Origin: a virus
Taxonomy: Duplodnaviria; Heunggongvirae; Uroviricota; Caudoviricetes
Strand: one strand, 5' to 3'
Virus record (IMG/VR): IMGVR_UViG_2695420701_000015
Length of the DNA stretch: 10,133 nucleotides
This document shows positions 36 through 6,886 of the stretch, in pieces. Made by a program: the position numbers and the translations under genes. The notes beneath the pieces are model-generated. The model was not told where the DNA came from. It was given only the letters and a program-made list of their open reading frames with translations, and made no database searches. Every line of letters begins with the position of its first letter. Position 1 is the first letter of the stretch.

Positions 36-587
36 ATGGCGATACTTGGATATTGCAGGGTGAGTACAGATGACCAATCCATCACTAACCAGCAAATGCA
101 AATTGAAGAGGCAGGGTACAACATTGCTAAATGGTTCACTGATGAAGCTGTCAGTGGTTCTGTCAAAGCTTCTTTAAGAAACGGTTTCAGCAGACTATTA
201 GCTTATGCACGAGAAGGTGACACCGTAGTTGTGGTAGCTGTAGACCGTCTTGGACGTGACACAATTGATGTGTTATCAACGGTTAAAGCGCTACAGGCTA
301 AAGGTGTGACAGTTATCAGCCTTAGAGAAGGGTTTGACTTATCAAGCGCTATGGGTGAAGCAATGTTAGGCATTATGTCAACGTTGGCACAGCTTGAAAG
401 AAGCTTGATAGCAGAGCGTAGAAAGGCTGGTATTGAACGTGCTAAAGCTGAAGGGGTACATATGGGAAGACCTGTAAAAGCTTCTTCAGAGGCTGTACAG
501 ATGCTTATTTCACAAGGTAAAACGAGGTTGCAGATTCAGGAAGAGCTAGGAATCTCTAGAGCAACTTATTACAGACTTGCTAAATAA
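36..587 (+). CDS. Small serine recombinase (resolvase/DNA-invertase family), 183 aa
   Basis: Complete ORF. N-terminus MAILGYCRVSTDDQ carries the catalytic-serine motif of small serine recombinases; VDRLGRD motif; C-terminal HTH-like [13 protein letters not shown]-like AAGGGGA about 6 nt upstream of the ATG. Confidence 0.9.
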   Translation: MAILGYCRVSTDDQSITNQQMQIEEAGYNIAKWFTDEAVSGSVKASLRNGFSRLLAYAREGDTVVVVAVDRLGRDTIDVLSTVKALQAKGVTVISLREGFDLSSAMGEAMLGIMSTLAQLERSLIAERRKAGIERAKAEGVHMGRPVKASSEAVQMLISQGKTRLQIQEELGISRATYYRLAK

Positions 588-776
588 GTTACTGAATAGT
601 TACATGGATGTAGCTGATATTTGGCTTTTTTGCCAAGGGGGTCACATAGCTGGTGTGACGGGTACTAAACACGTATACATCATGAGGTAGATTCTACCGA
701 ATCAACTAGACAGATATTTTCGAAGATTCGGGGAAGATGAGATTCAAAGAGGGCTAGTCATTTTTTATAAAAAATT
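198..776 (+). repeat. Copy A of the recombinase-3'/downstream module (3' part of the gene plus about 190 bp downstream)
   Basis: Direct repeat of 777-1356. The first 80 bp downstream of the stop (588-667) are identical in all three copies and contain palindromes TTGGC-T6-GCCAA and GTCACA-N7-TGTGAC. Copy A has a distinct 44-bp patch (668-711). Confidence 0.85.
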
Positions 777-1164
777 AGCTTATGCACGAGAAGGTGACAC
801 CGTAGTTGTGGTAGCTGTAGACCGTCTTGGACGTGACACAATTGATGTGTTATCAACGGTTAAAGCGCTACAGGCTAAAGGTGTGACAGTTATCAGCCTT
901 AGAGAAGGGTTTGACTTATCAAGCGCTATGGGTGAAGCAATGTTAGGCATTATGTCAACGTTGGCACAGCTTGAAAGAAGCTTGATAGCAGAGCGTAGAA
1001 AGGCTGGTATTGAACGTGCTAAAGCTGAAGGGGTACATATGGGGAGGCCTGTAAAAGCTTCTTCAGAGGCTGTACAGACGCTTATTTCACAAGGTAAGAC
1101 GAGGTTGCAGATTCAGGAAGAGTTAGGAATCTCTAGAGCAACTTATTACAGACTTGCTAAATAA
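777..1164 (+). pseudogene. 5'-truncated second copy of the serine recombinase gene (C-terminal about 129 codons only)
   Basis: nt 777-1164 align to nt 200-587 with 5 substitutions (4 synonymous, 1 Met->Thr). The catalytic N-terminal domain is absent; ORF-track ORF 808-1164 starts at an internal Met. Confidence 0.8.
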
Positions 1165-1356
1165 GTTACTGAATAGTTACATGGATGTAGCTGATATTTG
1201 GCTTTTTTGCCAAGGGGGTCACATAGCTGGTGTGACGGGTACTTAGCAGCTACAGACATCTGTCAGATATTTTTGAAGATTCGGGGAAGATGAGATTCAA
1301 AGAGGGCTAGTCATTTTTTATAAAAATTTTCAGACTCTGAAAAGTTACTGTACAGA
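777..1356 (+). repeat. Copy B of the recombinase-3'/downstream module (tandem, head-to-tail with copy A)
   Basis: Junction at about 774-777, where ...TTTTATAAAAAATT joins AGCTTATGCACGAG (gene position about 200). Downstream part 1165-1356 matches 3491-3684 almost exactly. Confidence 0.85.
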
Positions 1357-1508
1357 ATATATACAGATATCTTTAAAGTATCTGTAAAAACTTTTAAGAT
1401 AAAAGATAGATATCCCAGAAAGGATATCCGTTTAGAAAACCTGTTAAGTATCTCTTAAAAGAGAGTAAACCTTGTCAAGAGTGATTGCAATAAAAATTTT
1501 TATTTCTT

Positions 1509-2171
1509 ATGTCAATTGAGCATATTTTAATCGGGAAGCATCATGGGGGTTCTGATTACTGGAGAACTCCATTTTTGTTATTTAAGAACTTACACCGTGA
1601 ATTTATTTTCAGTCTAGATGGTGCTGCAACTGAGCATGACACGCTGTTACCACGATTCACCGATGATATAAGCCGTCAATCATGGGTTAGTGAAAAGGTC
1701 TTCTGTAACCCGCCGTACAGCGATATTCCGTCGTTCCTCTTAAAAGCGTCTGAAGCGGATTTAGTAGCTTTCCTGATACCGCATAGAGCCAACACCAGCT
1801 ACTGGCTTAGGCACATTTACAGCAATAACCACTGTCATGAAATCCGTATTCTTCATCGTGCAGTTAAATACCTTCCACCAGCAGGGCATAACAGGCTTAC
1901 TATTAGGTCACCGTTTCCAAGTGCAGTCGTTGTTTTTAAAAAAGAACCACGTAAGCATGAAATTACACAGATGGTTTGCTGTGCTGATACATTGCTACCG
2001 TTAACCATCATTAACCGTGGTGGACTAAGAGGAAGACCCACCATTTACCCACCTGAGACGCTCGACAGCTTCATAAAACTATACAGGCAAGGAAAACCCA
2101 TTAAGTACATTGCAGATGCTCTCAGAATGCCTCTGAGCACGTCATACAGGATTGCTCAAAGGTTGAGCTAA
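1509..2171 (+). CDS. DNA N6-adenine methyltransferase, phage Dam-like family, with C-terminal HTH-like extension (220 aa)
   Basis: Motifs DYWRTP, LDGAA and FCNPPYSD (NPPY catalytic motif of amino-methyltransferases) in the order typical of the phage Dam family. C-terminal about 45 aa (KPIKYIADALRMPLSTSYRIAQRL) resembles a resolvase-type HTH. No adjacent restriction endonuclease gene is visible. Confidence 0.75.
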   Translation: MSIEHILIGKHHGGSDYWRTPFLLFKNLHREFIFSLDGAATEHDTLLPRFTDDISRQSWVSEKVFCNPPYSDIPSFLLKASEADLVAFLIPHRANTSYWLRHIYSNNHCHEIRILHRAVKYLPPAGHNRLTIRSPFPSAVVVFKKEPRKHEITQMVCCADTLLPLTIINRGGLRGRPTIYPPETLDSFIKLYRQGKPIKYIADALRMPLSTSYRIAQRLS

Positions 2172-2275
2172 AATTCTCATAAATATGGTCATTTACAAGA
2201 CAGGTGATTCAGATGTTAAGAAGTATCCCCGTGAACAATAAATGACCAATCAGTAATCATTCTGTGAAATAATTG

Positions 2276-2304
2276 TTGCAATTTATAATCACATCTGTTA
2301 TAGT
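2276..2304 (+). promoter_or_regulatory. Candidate sigma70 promoter (TTGCAA-17 bp-TATAGT)
   Basis: Hexamers and 17-bp spacing read directly. It lies about 230 bp upstream of the 2535 ORF, so the assignment is tentative. Confidence 0.3.
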
Positions 2305-2534
2305 TTCTATATGGGCTGATAAAAAAGTTCATGTCTTGAAGTGGTAACACTTGGGGAGGTGTCAGATGGTTGGCGTATATTAACCTCTCATTCAGGGTAT
2401 ACCTCAGCGTTTTAATCATCGTACTGTTTCAGGCATGGACTTCTTTATCAGTCCATCAATCCCCCAGATATTTTAATCACACAGGCTAATCGGTTTTATC
2501 CGGTTGGCCTTTTCACGTATGAGGTAATTTATGA

Positions 2535-2924
2535 ATGTCTAAATATAACCCAAATCAGTTTTATAAATTTGATGTGCGAATCTCTCAACTTTCAGAAGAA
2601 ATTAACGCAGCAGCAAGATTGATTTATATGGTCATGGTCCATAGCTGTGACTTCTATGAAGAGAAATACAAATCATATTCACCAAGTATTGACCATCTCG
2701 CTTATATGGCTGGTGTATCAAAGAGAACAGCAATCAGAGCCATTGAGACACTTGAGAAACACGGTTTAATTCAGGTGCAAAAGAATCAGGGGCGTCAAAG
2801 CACTTATCGTGTATTCACACTGGATGATAAGCCGGAATTACTTGTAAGACCTACATCACAGGAAGTTGCAGCCTCAGTAAGACAAAATGACACCACTACC
2901 AGTGACAAAATGTCATGGGGGTAG
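2535..2924 (+). CDS. Winged-helix DNA-binding protein, possible replication-initiator or regulator N-terminal part (129 aa ORF)
   Basis: Segment LAYMAGVSKRTAIRAIETLEKHGLIQV is HTH/winged-helix-like. GAGG lies 10 nt upstream of the ATG. The ORF stops at a TAG (2922-2924) between two 15-bp repeats, and the coding signal continues in another frame. Confidence 0.5.
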   Translation: MSKYNPNQFYKFDVRISQLSEEINAAARLIYMVMVHSCDFYEEKYKSYSPSIDHLAYMAGVSKRTAIRAIETLEKHGLIQVQKNQGRQSTYRVFTLDDKPELLVRPTSQEVAASVRQNDTTTSDKMSWG

Positions 2925-3138
2925 TGACAAAATGTCACCCGTGTTAGAGTTAGATAAGTTATTAGATAAAACATTAGATAATAATATTACAGATAAGAAT
3001 AAAGAGACTGGACTTAATGATGATATTAAAGAAGATGACTTTCTTTCTTTGGATGAATTAAATGATTTTCTCTCTATGAATGAATCTGACCTTGAAGTAA
3101 GCTCTAAAAAGGGTGATGCTGCCAACTTACTGATTTAG
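2887..3138 (+). pseudogene. Acidic C-terminal continuation of the rep-like gene in a shifted frame, 3'-truncated by IS1
   Basis: ORF 2887-3138 re-reads the second 15-bp repeat as SDKMS, the same peptide ORF 2535-2924 reads from the first repeat. Its last 9 codons (GDAANLLI-stop) are encoded by the IS1 left inverted repeat, so the native 3' end is missing. Confidence 0.35.
2901..2937 (+). repeat. Two exact 15-bp direct repeats AGTGACAAAATGTCA, 22-bp period, each containing the palindrome TGACA-N3-TGTCA
   Basis: Read directly: copies at 2901-2915 and 2923-2937. The 7-bp spacers differ (TGGGGGT versus CCCGTGT). Confidence 0.9.
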
Positions 3139-3450
3139 TGTATGATGGTGTTTTTGAGGTGCTCCAGTGGCTTCTGTTTCTATCAGCTGTCCCTCCTGTT
3201 CAGCTACTGACGGGGTGGTGCGTAACGGCAAAAGCACTGCCGGACATCAGCGCTATCTCTGCTCTCACTGCCGTAAAACATGGCAACTGCACGCATTATG
3301 GGCGTTGGCCTCAACACGATTTTACGTCACTTAAAAAACTCAGGCCGCAGTCGGTAACCTCGCGCATACAGCCGGGCAGTGACGTCATCGTCTGCGCGGA
3401 AATGGACGAACAGTGGGGCTATGTCGGGGCTAAATCGCGCCAGCGCTGGC
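3112..3450. mobile_element. IS1 remnant: intact left terminal inverted repeat, insA with internal deletion, start of insB; right part absent
   Basis: GGTGATGCTGCCAACTTACTGAT at 3112-3134 matches the IS1 left inverted repeat as I recall it. The following sequence encodes the InsA N-terminus ([41 protein letters not shown]). About 85 bp appear to be missing after 3291 relative to canonical IS1 (from memory). IS1-like sequence stops at 3450. The segment is visibly more GC-rich than its flanks. Confidence 0.8.
3167..3334 (+). pseudogene. insA: insA remnant (GTG start), frameshifted by the internal deletion
   Basis: Translation from GTG at 3167 gives the InsA N-terminus and then diverges after ...KTWQL into [14 protein letters not shown]-stop. 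The InsA C-terminal peptide [21 protein letters not shown] is encoded in a different frame. Confidence 0.7.
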
Positions 3451-3451
3451 A

Positions 3452-3684
3452 TAGGAATCTCTAGAGCAACTTATTACAGACTTGCTAAATAAGTTACTGA
3501 ATAGTTACATGGATGTAGCTGATATTTGGCTTTTTTGCCAAGGGGGTCACATAGCTGGTGTGACGGGTACTTAGCAGCTACAGACATCTGTCAGATATTT
3601 TTGAAGATTCGGGGAAGATGAGATTCAAAGAGGGCTAGTCATTTTTTATAAAAATTTTCAGATTCTGAAAAGTTACTGTACAGA
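3452..3684 (+). repeat. Copy C of the module: last about 13 codons of the recombinase gene plus downstream region
   Basis: TAGGAATCTCTAGAGCAACTTATTACAGACTTGCTAAATAA and the following about 190 bp match 549-587 and 1165-1356. It begins abruptly inside IS1-derived sequence. Confidence 0.85.
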
Positions 3685-4630
3685 TTTTGCACAATCCTAC
3701 CAAACCTCATAGTTGATTCGATTAGAAGCTAATCTCATAGAAAGCTCTGTAGCGAGTTTTAACCCCATTTTTAGGGGTAACCTATAGGGATGTACTAACC
3801 ACCTTAAAATAAAGGGGTAAAATCGCTTAGAATGCGTTACAGAGCGTCTGAGAAGCCATATTCACAGATTTTACTAAAACCTCAGACTTCTAAGTAGTCT
3901 TTTAACAGGAGGGGTTCCCCTATGGTCACATATCCCCTCTCTTTCCACTAAGTAAGCCTTAGCAGCACCTAAGCAACAATTGACTAACAGATTCGGTAGA
4001 GTCTATCTCATAGGTCAACTTCATAAACTCAGAGCTAAGTTACCTTGAAAGATTCTACCAAGAACTACACAGGTGTTATTTAGTCTGACTGTGAAGGGAT
4101 ATTTAACGGGAGAAGAGATACGATATAACCCGAAGGGAGAGTATCATCTTAACAATTATCTTAAGAATAAAACTGAAAAACTCTTAACAGATAACCACCT
4201 AGAAAGAAGGGAACGATAAGACCAGAGGTAGTGACCTGTTAAACAGGCTGTTTCAAAGTCTCTTAAAAGTCTGTTAAGTAAGGTCATGTGAACAATCTTA
4301 CCATTTTGTCAATGCTTTTGTCTTTGACCTAAATCAATAAAATGTATCGTTTGATATGCTTTTAAACAAAATAGCTAAAAAATCTTTTTTTAGAGGGGCG
4401 CTTCGCTTGGGGTCACTATGAATGATTTTTCTCTCGCTAAGAGAGCGCTTACAGAGGTCTTTCAAATCTCAATAGCCAGCCGAGGAACACAGGAAACCGA
4501 GGGAAGAAAAACTATTGTGATTACCTTGAACAAGGTCTGTAAAGGTCGTTTAAGAGGTCGGTTAAGAAAGGAGCTTCCCTCTCTGGGGTTATCGCTCTTC
4601 TCCCGATTAGTGGGGCGGTTAAGGGGGCTT

Positions 4631-4812
4631 GAAGTTATCTGTGAAGGTACTGGACAGTCTTATATATTGGGTGATTACAACTCGTTGAAAAATAAGCATT
4701 TTTAGAAGTTACTGTTAAGGTTGCAGAGTTGTCTGTGAAGAGACTTGTCAGTTCTCTATATATGGCTAATTACAACTTATTGAAAAATAAGAACTTTTAG
4801 AAATTACTGTCA
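4631..4812. repeat. Two imperfect tandem direct repeats, about 94-bp period
   Basis: TCTGTGAAG...TTGAAAAATAAG(C/A)A(T/C)TTTTAGAA(G/A)TTACTGT occurs twice, starting at 4638 and 4732, roughly 80 percent identical by eye. Confidence 0.8.
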
Positions 4813-5122: not shown

Positions 5123-5136
5123 TAGTTTTCCTTGTA

Positions 5137-5234
5137 AGACGCTCTCAATCGCATTCTGACACAAAAAGTACCTGACCTTATGAGTTGACCTGAAGAGGTC
5201 GTTTAACTCGTTACAGGGCGATTGAAGAGGTCTG
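5137..5234. repeat. Palindromic repeated element, copy 1 (terminal inverted repeats AGACGCTCTCAATCGC / GCGATTGAAGAGGTCTG)
   Basis: Both terminal arms are shared with copy 2 at 6765-6886; the central part differs. It sits immediately upstream of the RBS of the minus-strand small ORF. Confidence 0.8.
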
Positions 5235-6255: not shown

Positions 6256-6528
6256 ATGAAGCAATGGCGAGATGATATTAAACGGTTCTTTGCAACTTAC
6301 TTCATGATTAATTATGAGACAGGAATGCTTGAATGGATTGATGGTGGAGAGGTTAAGACAAGAGATGATGCTTACGGTAATCCAATGATTCGTTATGGCA
6401 CTCGTGATTATTATCTGAAGTATGTCATCTGGTTTTTGCATCATGAAGTTCAGGCAACTAAAAAGATTATCTTCAGGGATGGTAATAAAAGAAATTGCCA
6501 CCCAAACAATTTACTCCTGGAGATTTAA
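6256..6528 (+). CDS. Small protein with degenerate HNH_3-like motif, 90 aa
   Basis: AGGAGG RBS 7 nt upstream. C-terminal half (YLKYVIWFLHH...IIFRDGNKRNCHPNNLLL) resembles the HNH_3/NUMOD4-type pattern (HRxVW...IDHIDGNxxNNxxxNLRL), but the DH of the catalytic motif is replaced by FR. Confidence 0.6.
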   Translation: MKQWRDDIKRFFATYFMINYETGMLEWIDGGEVKTRDDAYGNPMIRYGTRDYYLKYVIWFLHHEVQATKKIIFRDGNKRNCHPNNLLLEI

Positions 6529-6728
6529 TGTTATGTATTAAATTCGAATATTTGACAGATAAAATGATTAAGCATGTATCAGACCTGCTCATCAAAGAAG
6601 GTGGTTTCGGTGATGCTTGCAATCCAAAAGATATCTTCATTCATGCCACCAGCCCAAACGCAACACTAAAGACAGCAGTTACAGCGGAATGGTTTGAACG
6701 AAATAAAGCGGAATTAGGTTATTGGTAG
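6528..6728 (+). CDS. Hypothetical small protein, 66 aa (ATG start; the ORF track extends to 6495 via a TTG)
   Basis: ATG overlaps the upstream stop (TAATG), indicating translational coupling. Confidence 0.55.
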   Translation: MLCIKFEYLTDKMIKHVSDLLIKEGGFGDACNPKDIFIHATSPNATLKTAVTAEWFERNKAELGYW

Positions 6729-6764
6729 TCCGAGACTTTAAGAGAAATTAGAAAAACAGCTTAT

Positions 6765-6886
6765 CAGACGCTCTCAATCGCATTCTAACGCAAAAAACTA
6801 TCTTATTTTAGGGTGGGTAATACCACTGTACAGGCTACCCCTGAAAAAGACTGTTTAGCTCGTTACAGAGCGATTGAGGAGGTCTG
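6765..6886. repeat. Palindromic repeated element, copy 2 (CAGACGCTCTCAATCGC ... GCGATTGAGGAGGTCTG)
   Basis: Same terminal arms as copy 1 and an internal palindromic core. It ends about 20 nt before the ATG of the 6907 gene on the plus strand. Confidence 0.8.

Follow-up and report, generated by a model that had tools for sequence, protein, structure and literature searches.

Introduction

Several replication initiators are encoded by genes that also contain the origin. In bacteriophage lambda, the origin (ori-lambda) lies in the middle of the initiator gene O, where the sequence encoding the N-terminal DNA-binding domain is followed by four dyad-symmetric direct repeats, or iterons, and then by an A+T-rich tract. 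The Rep protein of plasmid pSK41 (319 amino acids, aa) binds to four boxes in the centre of the rep gene, and the central domain of the protein that this origin encodes is a dispensable linker (PMC5703833). The gp38 protein of phage SPP1 binds the direct repeats of oriL within gene 38, beside an A+T-rich unwinding element (PMC6316719). Here, we compare with these systems a broken gene at positions 2535–3138 of a 10,133-nucleotide (nt) stretch of DNA from a virus of the class Caudoviricetes (IMG/VR record IMGVR_UViG_2695420701_000015), the whole of which is called the window below. We consider it quite probable that this gene is a pseudogene of an initiator resembling lambda O and the RepA_N proteins, with an origin embedded in its coding sequence, and that the two repeats it contains are the remnant of a larger iteron array; this grading applies to the combined statement.

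Two further findings on the RepA_N family are relevant to the comparison. The Rep proteins of RepA_N plasmids consist of a winged-helix N-terminal domain of ~120 aa and a host-specific C-terminal domain, and the N-domain of pPR9 Rep, which belongs to pfam13730, supports replication (PMC5703833). The iterons of this group are semi-palindromic direct repeats coming together at a poly-A tract (PMC7145576). An earlier note on the window, made from its letters alone, had described a Rep-like winged-helix gene split across two reading frames at a pair of repeats and truncated by the insertion element IS1, and had offered an insertion or duplication, a pair of operators, and a programmed frameshift as explanations for the split.

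Results

Repeats and reading frames in the window

Two exact copies of the 15-base-pair (bp) sequence AGTGACAAAATGTCA are present at 2901–2915 and 2923–2937, 22 bp apart from start to start, as had been noted. They are real and non-random: shuffled versions of the window gave a mean of 0.55 matches to AGTGACAAAATGTCA even with three mismatches allowed. A third, degenerate copy, AGACAAAATGACA, lies on the same (plus) strand at 2880–2892, 23 bp 5′ of the first exact copy and with two mismatches to the core, and is found at equal spacing in every allele examined. The first exact copy, whose 13-bp core TGACAAAATGTCA occupies 2903–2915, forms part of an exact 19-bp stretch, ACCAGTGACAAAATGTCAT (2898–2916, plus strand), that contains the scar of a deletion described below. 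The second and last copy adjoins an A+T-rich tract with TAGATAA repeats at 2941–3005, a candidate DNA-unwinding element that encodes a linker rich in N, D, K, I, and L.

Two overlapping open reading frames (ORFs) read these repeats, both on the plus strand. ORF1 (2535–2924, 129 aa) encodes the winged-helix DNA-binding domain of the initiator, as recognized by Pfam HTH_36, PHROG, and AlphaFold, together with the first iteron-encoded residues; it translates the first exact copy as SDKMS and stops at a TAG at 2922–2924. ORF2 (2887–3138, 83 aa), in the +1 frame, translates the first copy as VTKCH and the second as SDKMS, and represents the initiator’s native downstream frame, comprising the linker and the opening part of the acidic C-terminal half, until a TAG inside the left end of IS1 closes it. 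The two-ORF reading of the earlier note, with SDKMS in each ORF and the second stop supplied by IS1, is thus correct. ORF2 is open only because its ATG falls in the degenerate iteron.

An ancestral three-copy array has lost one 23-bp unit

Homologues ~95% identical to the window gene occur in complete Escherichia coli chromosomes, each of them annotated as a single “helix-turn-helix domain-containing protein” of ~325 aa; across ~70 complete genomes, the intact form is one gene for 325 aa (for instance, L001:6236–7213). The sole match of a megablast search of positions 2300–3140 against plasmids and phages was the IS1 end, which indicates that the element is chromosomal. The region is present in 76 of 5426 complete E. 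coli genomes, most of which have a 161-bp form with three copies. Intact genes contain three exact repeats and one degenerate repeat at spacings of 23, 23, and 22 bp (in L001, at 6581 for the degenerate copy and at 6604, 6627, and 6649 for the exact ones). The exact copies are therefore spread over 23 + 22 = 45 bp, which keeps the frame, and the intact protein reads …TTSDKMSSVPVTKCHGGSDKMSPV…, one DNA word being translated in two frames. The three-copy layout SDKM..PVTKCH..SDKMSPV was found in all 120 of the closest full-length proteins (89–100% identity, 313–328 aa), in which variation was concentrated in the spacers.

Aligned with three intact E. coli genes, the window has a gap of 23 columns at the repeats, and the stretch ACCAGTGACAAAATGTCAT, present once here, occurs twice in the intact genes, 23 bp apart. 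The split into two ORFs results from the loss of one 23-bp unit, which shifts the frame into the stops of the next iteron unit; the premature end of ORF1 consists of a TAG followed by a TGA within the conserved unit GGGGTAGTGAC. The loss is most simply attributed to slippage or unequal recombination between the 19-bp direct repeats. These results bear on several proposals of the earlier note. Its frameshift at the repeats is real, since intact homologues read through in a single frame, and the homologues it had proposed to inspect for the same repeat pair carry the fuller array of three exact copies and a degenerate one. The intact homologues are one gene of ~325 aa and do not end where ORF1 ends. 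The insertion or duplication of 22 bp, in contrast, is refuted, one 23-bp unit having been lost from an array of three exact copies, and joining the ORFs by removal of a 22-bp unit restores the frame but yields a product 15 aa shorter than any intact homologue.

The window copy also contains a tandem 6-bp duplication (GTTAGA, 2943–2948 and 2949–2954) in its A+T-rich tract, and IS1 truncates the gene after the codons for …SSKK. The gene is a pseudogene in a degraded mobile element. Its history of a 23-bp loss, the stop that resulted, a 6-bp duplication, and truncation by IS1 is recorded in the alignments, and, taken alone, is close to certain.

Origin-like anatomy of the intact gene

In the intact gene, a winged-helix domain of ~115 aa is followed by four units of ~22–23 bp, an A+T-rich tract of 50–60 bp, and the acidic C-terminal half. 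The iterons span codons ~116–142 of 325, directly after the winged-helix domain, and the core of each unit is semi-palindromic (GTGAC-AAAA-TGTCAC). The 52 bp that follow the last iteron are 83% A+T, compared to 63% for the whole gene, and the tract contains four copies of TAGATAA at spacings of 12, 12, and 15 bp. The gene thus has the layout that defines the embedded-origin class, with dyad-symmetric direct repeats in its own coding sequence after the DNA-binding domain and an A+T-rich tract directly beside the last iteron. It also has the traits used to define RepA_N-type origins (PMC7145576, PMC5703833), in that the semi-palindromic core is central in the gene and the segment it encodes is predicted to be disordered. 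The earlier suggestion that the repeats are protein-binding sites about two helical turns apart is the most plausible account of them; the part of it that made them operators at the end of a gene does not hold, as the array lies in the middle of a gene of 325 codons.

Protein family and predicted fold

The description of the gene as Rep-like and winged-helix is well supported. Pfam HTH_36 (PF13730) was matched by window ORF1 (31.2 bits) and by the intact homologue (28.9 bits), both above the gathering threshold of 25 bits, and by 46 of 52 relatives; matches in PHROG were to “replication initiation protein” and “O-like” families. The AlphaFold model of the intact homologue, built on the 52 relatives, predicts a winged helix at aa 10–105 with per-residue confidence (pLDDT) of 87–98, a low-confidence and presumably disordered segment at aa ~116–170, which is encoded by the repeats and the A+T-rich tract, and a single confident long helix (246–281) within an acidic and otherwise disordered C-terminal half.

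The top Foldseek matches of the modelled N-domain in the PDB were 4ro3, 4pql, 5kbj, 4pt7, and 4pta (E 1e-4 to 3e-3; target TM 0.55–0.70), and initiator N-domains ranked ahead of generic MarR and ArsR regulators. The first of these structures represents the RepA N-domain from the Vibrio cholerae phage satellite PLE, and the others are from staphylococcal RepA_N plasmid initiators (PMC7145576), such that the predicted N-domain has a fold like that of RepA_N N-domains. When the family profile was compared to the PDB, most matches were to generic MarR and CRP winged helices, and RepA_N chains were weak (E ~0.02). A sequence search of solved structures with the single protein returned nothing useful, and a tblastn search of sequenced phages with the intact protein returned only one weak match, in Parageobacillus, so that no characterized close relative is found among sequenced phages. 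In terms of membership, the gene belongs to Pfam HTH_36 and by sequence falls outside both Phage_rep_O and RepA_N; its placement in the broad superfamily of winged-helix initiators, as an initiator with an embedded iteron origin, is probable as part of the combined statement given in the introduction.

Likeness to described systems

The positional agreement with lambda is close. The lambda iterons occupy codons ~117–145 of 299 at spacings of 20, 24, and 23 bp, compared to codons ~116–142 of 325 and 23, 23, and 22 bp here, and both iterons consist of inverted arms around an A-tract (TCCCTC-AAAAC-GAGGGA in lambda, GTGAC-AAAAT-GTCAC here). Iteron number varies in both groups: lambda has four and Stx phages have six (PMC7466680), and the E. 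coli gene has two, three, or six. Unlike lambda O, the present protein has no detectable sequence homology to O and no Phage_rep_O match, no gene for a P-like helicase loader is recognized downstream, and its C-terminal half is acidic and predicted to be mostly disordered rather than a P-binding domain. Nor is the gene part of a lambdoid prophage; it resides in a compact island that also has a large serine recombinase.

With the RepA_N initiators of pSK41 and pTZ2162, the protein shares a three-part organization of ~320 aa and a predicted N-domain fold that matches 4pql, 5kbj, 4pt7, and 4pta, and with pPR9 Rep it shares the Pfam family of the N-domain (pfam13730). It differs from them in not reaching the Pfam RepA_N family, in its iteron sequence, in the lack of an identified antisense-RNA control region, and in being chromosomal, as part of a phage-like island integrated in a Gram-negative host. 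The best structural match of the predicted fold was PLE RepA (4RO3; Foldseek E 1e-4, target TM 0.70), which is likewise a RepA_N-like initiator from a small element integrated in a Gram-negative host and equipped with a large serine recombinase; the PLE origin, however, is non-coding and outside repA (PMC7145576), the two have no sequence similarity, and the E. coli island is a putative satellite at most. SPP1 gp38 and oriL share the embedded-repeat layout, and a DnaB-type helicase gene also follows in one distant relative (L004, see below). SPP1, however, is equipped with loader and helicase genes of its own, which are absent from the E. coli island, and with a further origin, oriR; no homology was seen, and no test aimed at it was made.

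Conservation of the iteron at the DNA level

One divergent comparison comes from L004, a viral contig with a GC content of 29%, whose protein is just 34% identical to that of E. coli over the winged helix. At the same position in the gene, L004 contains three exact 13-bp cores and one degenerate core, and a tandem A+T-rich repeat follows the array; the DnaB-type helicase gene is further downstream. The 24-nt sequence GGGGGTAGTGACAAAATGTCACCC around the last iteron is identical between L004 and the E. coli gene.

Scans for the exact pattern picked up the array in 28 viral contigs and in 18 species-representative genomes. At ~20 non-redundant loci, on contigs of 28–56% GC, the array lies within an ORF, after the winged helix and before A+T-rich DNA, and these intragenic arrays comprise 2–6 copies of the exact 13-bp core at spacings of 20–24 bp. 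Among these loci are genomes of the Izemoplasmatales, Clostridia, Coprobacillaceae, Thermosediminibacteraceae, Verrucomicrobiota, Bacteroidota (Parabacteroides), and Escherichia; beyond the phylum of E. coli, core arrays occupy this position in initiator genes of at least five others, with proteins that are 20–35% identical. An exhaustive search of 50%-identity cluster representatives returned 74 relatives, and ~20 distant relatives (mostly 30–45% identity) contain the peptides VTKCH, DKMS, or QNVT, nearly all at aa 90–175.

Exact copies are read as VTKCH in 22 cases and as DKMS in 31, with both frames mixed at 16 of 20 loci. Read in the third frame, the motif’s TGA would terminate translation, as would a TAG in the conserved flank; copies in that frame therefore have a substitution at the first base and are read QNVT; the stops that end ORF1 after the deletion are these third-frame stops of the iteron unit. 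Given that the core remains exact at 20–35% protein identity and is translated in two frames within one array, selection acts on the DNA.

Other repeats occupy the same position in some relatives, namely GDTHVT in four copies (P0155), TSAETAE in two (P0152), and DGSQRP in two (P0138). In the coliphages mEp010, mEp044, and mEp013, the homologous gene is annotated “DNA replication protein O”. The mEp010 homologue (30% identity) has four sister iterons, GGGGTAGTGACACAGAGTCAC (also given as GTGACACAGAGTCAC), after the homologous winged helix (L063:2482–2565, PP180001.1), and its gene lies directly downstream of the cI-repressor region, the position of O in lambda. In these relatives, the iteron sequence has diversified within a conserved architecture. 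The published account of the mEpimmI-group phages, to which mEp010, mEp044, and mEp013 belong, makes no mention of iterons or an origin, and a search for the motif in the literature open to searching returned only primers and unrelated matches and no relevant paper containing it. A match in a Clostridium perfringens plasmid was set aside as uninformative, as it comprised just two degenerate intergenic copies.

Intergenic arrays of TGACAAAATGTCA were also observed in four viral contigs (L019, L023, L025, L032) and two genomes (L036, L042), with 4–6 copies at spacings of 22–24 bp and no ORF over them; in L042, six copies are followed by A+T-rich DNA. By analogy with SPP1 oriR, these may be second origins, or they may be origins located outside the gene.

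Alleles, haplotypes, and array instability

Array size in E. coli is two, three, or six copies. Two-copy alleles are present in strains 90-3040 (L061) and AB_24_S34 (L062), in which PGAP, the annotation pipeline of NCBI, labels the gene a “frameshifted” pseudogene, and, judging by alignment span, in 2013C-3492, 2013C-4830, and 2012C-4227. At the other extreme, E. coli 00-3076 (L060:2075–2240) has six or seven units, three extra 23-bp units adding 69 bp in frame. The extra units (AGTGACAAAATGACACCACTACC) are of hybrid make-up, part degenerate copy and part copy 1, and PGAP flags an internal stop elsewhere in this gene.

The exact 129-aa product of ORF1 was found in 2126 assembly-index blocks, with Shigella sonnei and E. 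coli as the named records, and in complete chromosomes at two integration sites. At the mdtG–lpxL site (L052, L057, L059), the 23-bp loss is the sole lesion and the last iteron is flipped (GTGACATTTTGTCAC). This inverted iteron is also present in L061; in all four loci it lies ~53 nt after CCTCAGTAAGAC and is read as SDILS, a peptide that recurs in the full-length protein P0043, and the flip keeps the dyad arms and switches the strand of the A-tract. At the yecN/torZ site (L053–L056, L058), a second small indel directly follows the iterons, so that three frames would be needed to read the gene. The window allele is of the yecN/torZ type, with its 6-bp duplication in place of an insertion of 4 or 7 bp. 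The start of the A+T-rich tract is a hotspot for such indels: the intact sequence is GTTAGATAAG, the window has GTTAGAGTTAGATAAG (+6), and the five two-copy yecN/torZ loci, which a cluster record links to S. sonnei, have GTTAGAGTTTAGATAAG (+7) or GTTAGAGAGATAAG (+4).

In contrast to the window’s ORF1 product, the IS1 junction of the window and the exact product of its ORF2 are rare, being found in only seven short read-assembly contigs. The N-terminal 363 bp contain seven variable sites, six of them synonymous. At least three haplotypes of synonymous sites carry two-copy alleles, and each of these is no further from a three-copy allele than from other two-copy alleles; the two-copy alleles also differ among themselves in spacers, C-terminal variants, and integration sites, a pattern which suggests that the frameshifting 23-bp loss is recurrent.

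IS1 and rearrangement of the window

The truncation of the gene at its 3′ end by IS1 was confirmed, with IS1 beginning at 3112. By blastn against an intact 768-bp IS1 in L005, positions 3112–3291 correspond to IS1 nt 1–180 at 100% identity; this piece is joined via a 10-bp overlap to a second (nt ~256–424, 96%), with an internal deletion of ~75 bp. The fragment (3112–3450, plus strand; also recovered by Pfam and as direct-repeat family D1) ends at 3450/3451, at nt ~424 of 768, without a right end, and is fused there to a repeat that contains the 3′ end of a resolvase gene. The internal deletion and the cut-off leave insA disrupted. Both the left inverted repeat and insA/insB coding sequence are present, the ORFs after 3112 matching Pfam Zn_ribbon_InsA (77 bits) and DDE_Tnp_IS1.

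The resolvase/invertase gene (183 aa) is at 36–587. A 577-bp tandem duplication follows it (197–496 = 774–1073, 99%), with a second, 5′-truncated copy of the gene at 808–1164, and a 242-bp segment made up of the resolvase 3′ end and the sequence downstream of it is present in three copies, at 547–788 (65%), 1124–1365, and 3452–3693 (98%). Because the third of these copies abuts the IS1 fragment, a rearrangement mediated by IS1 or a recombinase that fused two related elements is suggested.

The part of the window without homology to the intact island contains two pairs of direct repeats, one of 48 nt (4668–4715 and 4763–4810, 95 bp apart, 85% identity) and one of 37 nt (5131–5167 and 6760–6796, 1.6 kb apart, 89%; CTTGTAAGACGCTCTCAATCGCATTCTGACACAAAAA). 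A 90-aa ORF at 6256–6528 has a weak HNH signature (Pfam HNH_3 at 22.7 bits, just under the cut-off, and PHROG HNH families); it is located in the segment specific to the window, which separates the IS1 fragment from the tape-measure gene.

Island context

In strain MLI104K1, the intact gene is carried by a ~12-kb island between tonB and yciI (L005; NZ_CP116923.1 2584410–2596102) that encodes a large serine recombinase, a Dit-like tail protein, a tape-measure protein (TMP_3), a Dam methylase, the initiator, and several unknown ORFs, and in which no capsid or terminase genes were found. Related islands are located at mdtG–lpxL, at yecN/torZ, and beside dinB (L052–L059, L062), and the window is a rearranged mosaic of such island elements. 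In combining a large serine recombinase with a RepA_N-like initiator, the island is reminiscent of the Vibrio PLE satellite, and it may be either a satellite or a prophage remnant; no relevant account of such an E. coli satellite turned up in a literature search.

Discussion

By analogy with the described systems, the intact element could work as follows. The winged-helix domain would bind the iterons, probably as dimers on the dyad cores; the iterons, phased about two helical turns apart and centred on A-tracts, would bend the DNA and thereby help the neighbouring A+T-rich tract to open; and replication proteins of the host or of a helper would be recruited by the C-terminal half, with the origin-encoded peptide serving as no more than a tolerant linker. 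In the window copy, one 23-bp unit was removed between the 19-bp repeats, shifting the frame into the TAG–TGA stops, with a further 6-bp duplication in the A+T-rich tract and the insertion of IS1 after …SSKK, IS1 itself being later deleted and rearranged.

Several observations count against this interpretation. Among the neighbours of the E. coli gene, no helicase, helicase loader, or primase is recognized, and the 98-aa ORF that overlaps it downstream has no Pfam or PHROG match. The protein matches neither Pfam RepA_N (PF06970) nor Phage_rep_O (PF04492), each of which is matched by 1 of the 52 relatives, and an hhalign comparison of the family profile to lambda O gave a probability of 0.8%, indicating no detectable homology. 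The intergenic arrays of TGACAAAATGTCA would also fit an operator role or an origin outside the gene. The independence of the recurrent deletions is deduced from only seven variable sites, and recombination could give an equal pattern. Finally, both origin activity and binding of the repeats by the protein are inferred from architecture and from analogy.

The main alternative is that the repeats are operators and that the winged-helix protein is an autoregulator or another transcription factor acting on palindromic sites. Each unit is dyad-symmetric, as is typical of the sites of dimeric winged-helix repressors, MarR, ArsR, and SlyA regulators are among the sequence and fold matches, and the motif occurs as intergenic pairs upstream of genes in L017/L031, L020/L026, L029, L030, and L037. 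Against this stands the arrangement observed: both the E. coli gene and ~20 distant loci have the array within the coding sequence, 350–430 bp downstream of its start, and the 3–6 in-phase direct copies are always followed by an A+T-rich tract, the layout of ori-lambda, the pSK41 origin, and SPP1 oriL. The best fold and PHROG matches are to initiators, not regulators, and the mEp010 homologue sits just downstream of the cI-repressor region as O does in lambda; we therefore regard a regulatory role as improbable. A proposal of about the same low probability, and one that is compatible with the embedded-origin interpretation, is that the two-copy allele is retained because its 129-aa winged-helix product blocks replication of related phages or satellites or of the resident element, as a form of exclusion or copy control. 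The abundance of this product (2126 index blocks and complete chromosomes at two sites) is in keeping with retention, as is the fact that ORF1 is intact in every two-copy allele examined, with indels and an IS1 gathering downstream, and six of the seven variable sites in the N-terminal 363 bp are synonymous; plasmids with part of the lambda replication region are reported to block plating of lambdoid phages (PMC3349717). The counts, on the other hand, are inflated by heavy clonal sampling of S. sonnei, and intact alleles show equal conservation of the N-terminal region, which means that the bias towards synonymous sites may be older than the deletions. The 387 bp compared in a handful of haplotypes have no statistical power, and a promoter scan 5′ of the gene gave nothing above chance (one weak site, fewer than in shuffled sequences).

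Far less probable than either is a programmed +1 frameshift at …UGG GGG UAG U… that would join ORF1 and ORF2 into a near-full-length initiator. ORF2 is indeed in the +1 frame, a run of G that we take to be loosely similar to the prfB site precedes the stop of ORF1, and the downstream frame is open to its natural stop in L052, L057, L059, and L061. Intact homologues, however, are single-frame, and the two-frame state arose by the 23-bp deletion and is not conserved. Alleles of the Shigella type need a third frame, the downstream frame of the window is cut by IS1, and PGAP calls the two-copy alleles frameshifted pseudogenes. An Rfam search found no recoding element, its matches being far below threshold, and the local RNA fold (z = −2.1) is explained by the palindromes alone; the frameshifting proposed in the earlier note is accordingly unsupported. 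There is equally little to recommend the idea that the repeat is a tandem repeat at the protein level, selected as a linker peptide. SDKMS does occur twice in the intact protein, but adjacent copies lie in different frames (SDKMS and VTKCH), the two being mixed at 16 of the 20 loci. The DNA core, moreover, is exact where proteins are 20–35% identical and also occurs in non-coding arrays, and the segment it encodes is predicted to be disordered.

A bolder pair of linked readings, which we consider unlikely when taken jointly, would extend the embedded-origin interpretation in two directions. The iteron GGGGTAGTGACAAAATGTCAC and its cognate HTH_36 domain would constitute one origin module shared across at least six bacterial phyla, with scarcely a letter of the iteron changing among phages, satellites, and prophages even as protein identity falls to 20–35%, and the 23-bp loss would yield a retained exclusion or copy-control domain, a stand-alone iteron-binding domain kept in S. 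sonnei and E. coli against elements with the same iterons. If the first of these were true, the recognition code between initiator and iteron would be unusually constrained and possibly interchangeable.

Conclusions

For the window itself, the explanation is ordinary: a dead initiator gene, broken by the loss of an iteron unit and by IS1. It accounts for the odd pair of overlapping ORFs and corrects the direction of the mutation, a unit having been lost and not gained. An origin inside a gene makes that gene fragile, since slippage by a unit alters copy number and, where the unit length is not a multiple of three, also destroys the reading frame. More broadly, the analysis provides a signature for widespread unnamed genes of the “helix-turn-helix domain-containing protein” type, namely a winged helix followed by arrays of GTGACAAAATGTCAC (read as VTKCH or DKMS) and an A+T-rich linker. 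Genes with this signature are probably replication initiators with an embedded origin, and the signature could be used to locate origins in many uncultivated phages, satellites, and prophages. The gene family, whose iteron hardly varies between phyla, extends a textbook arrangement in a useful if unsurprising way.

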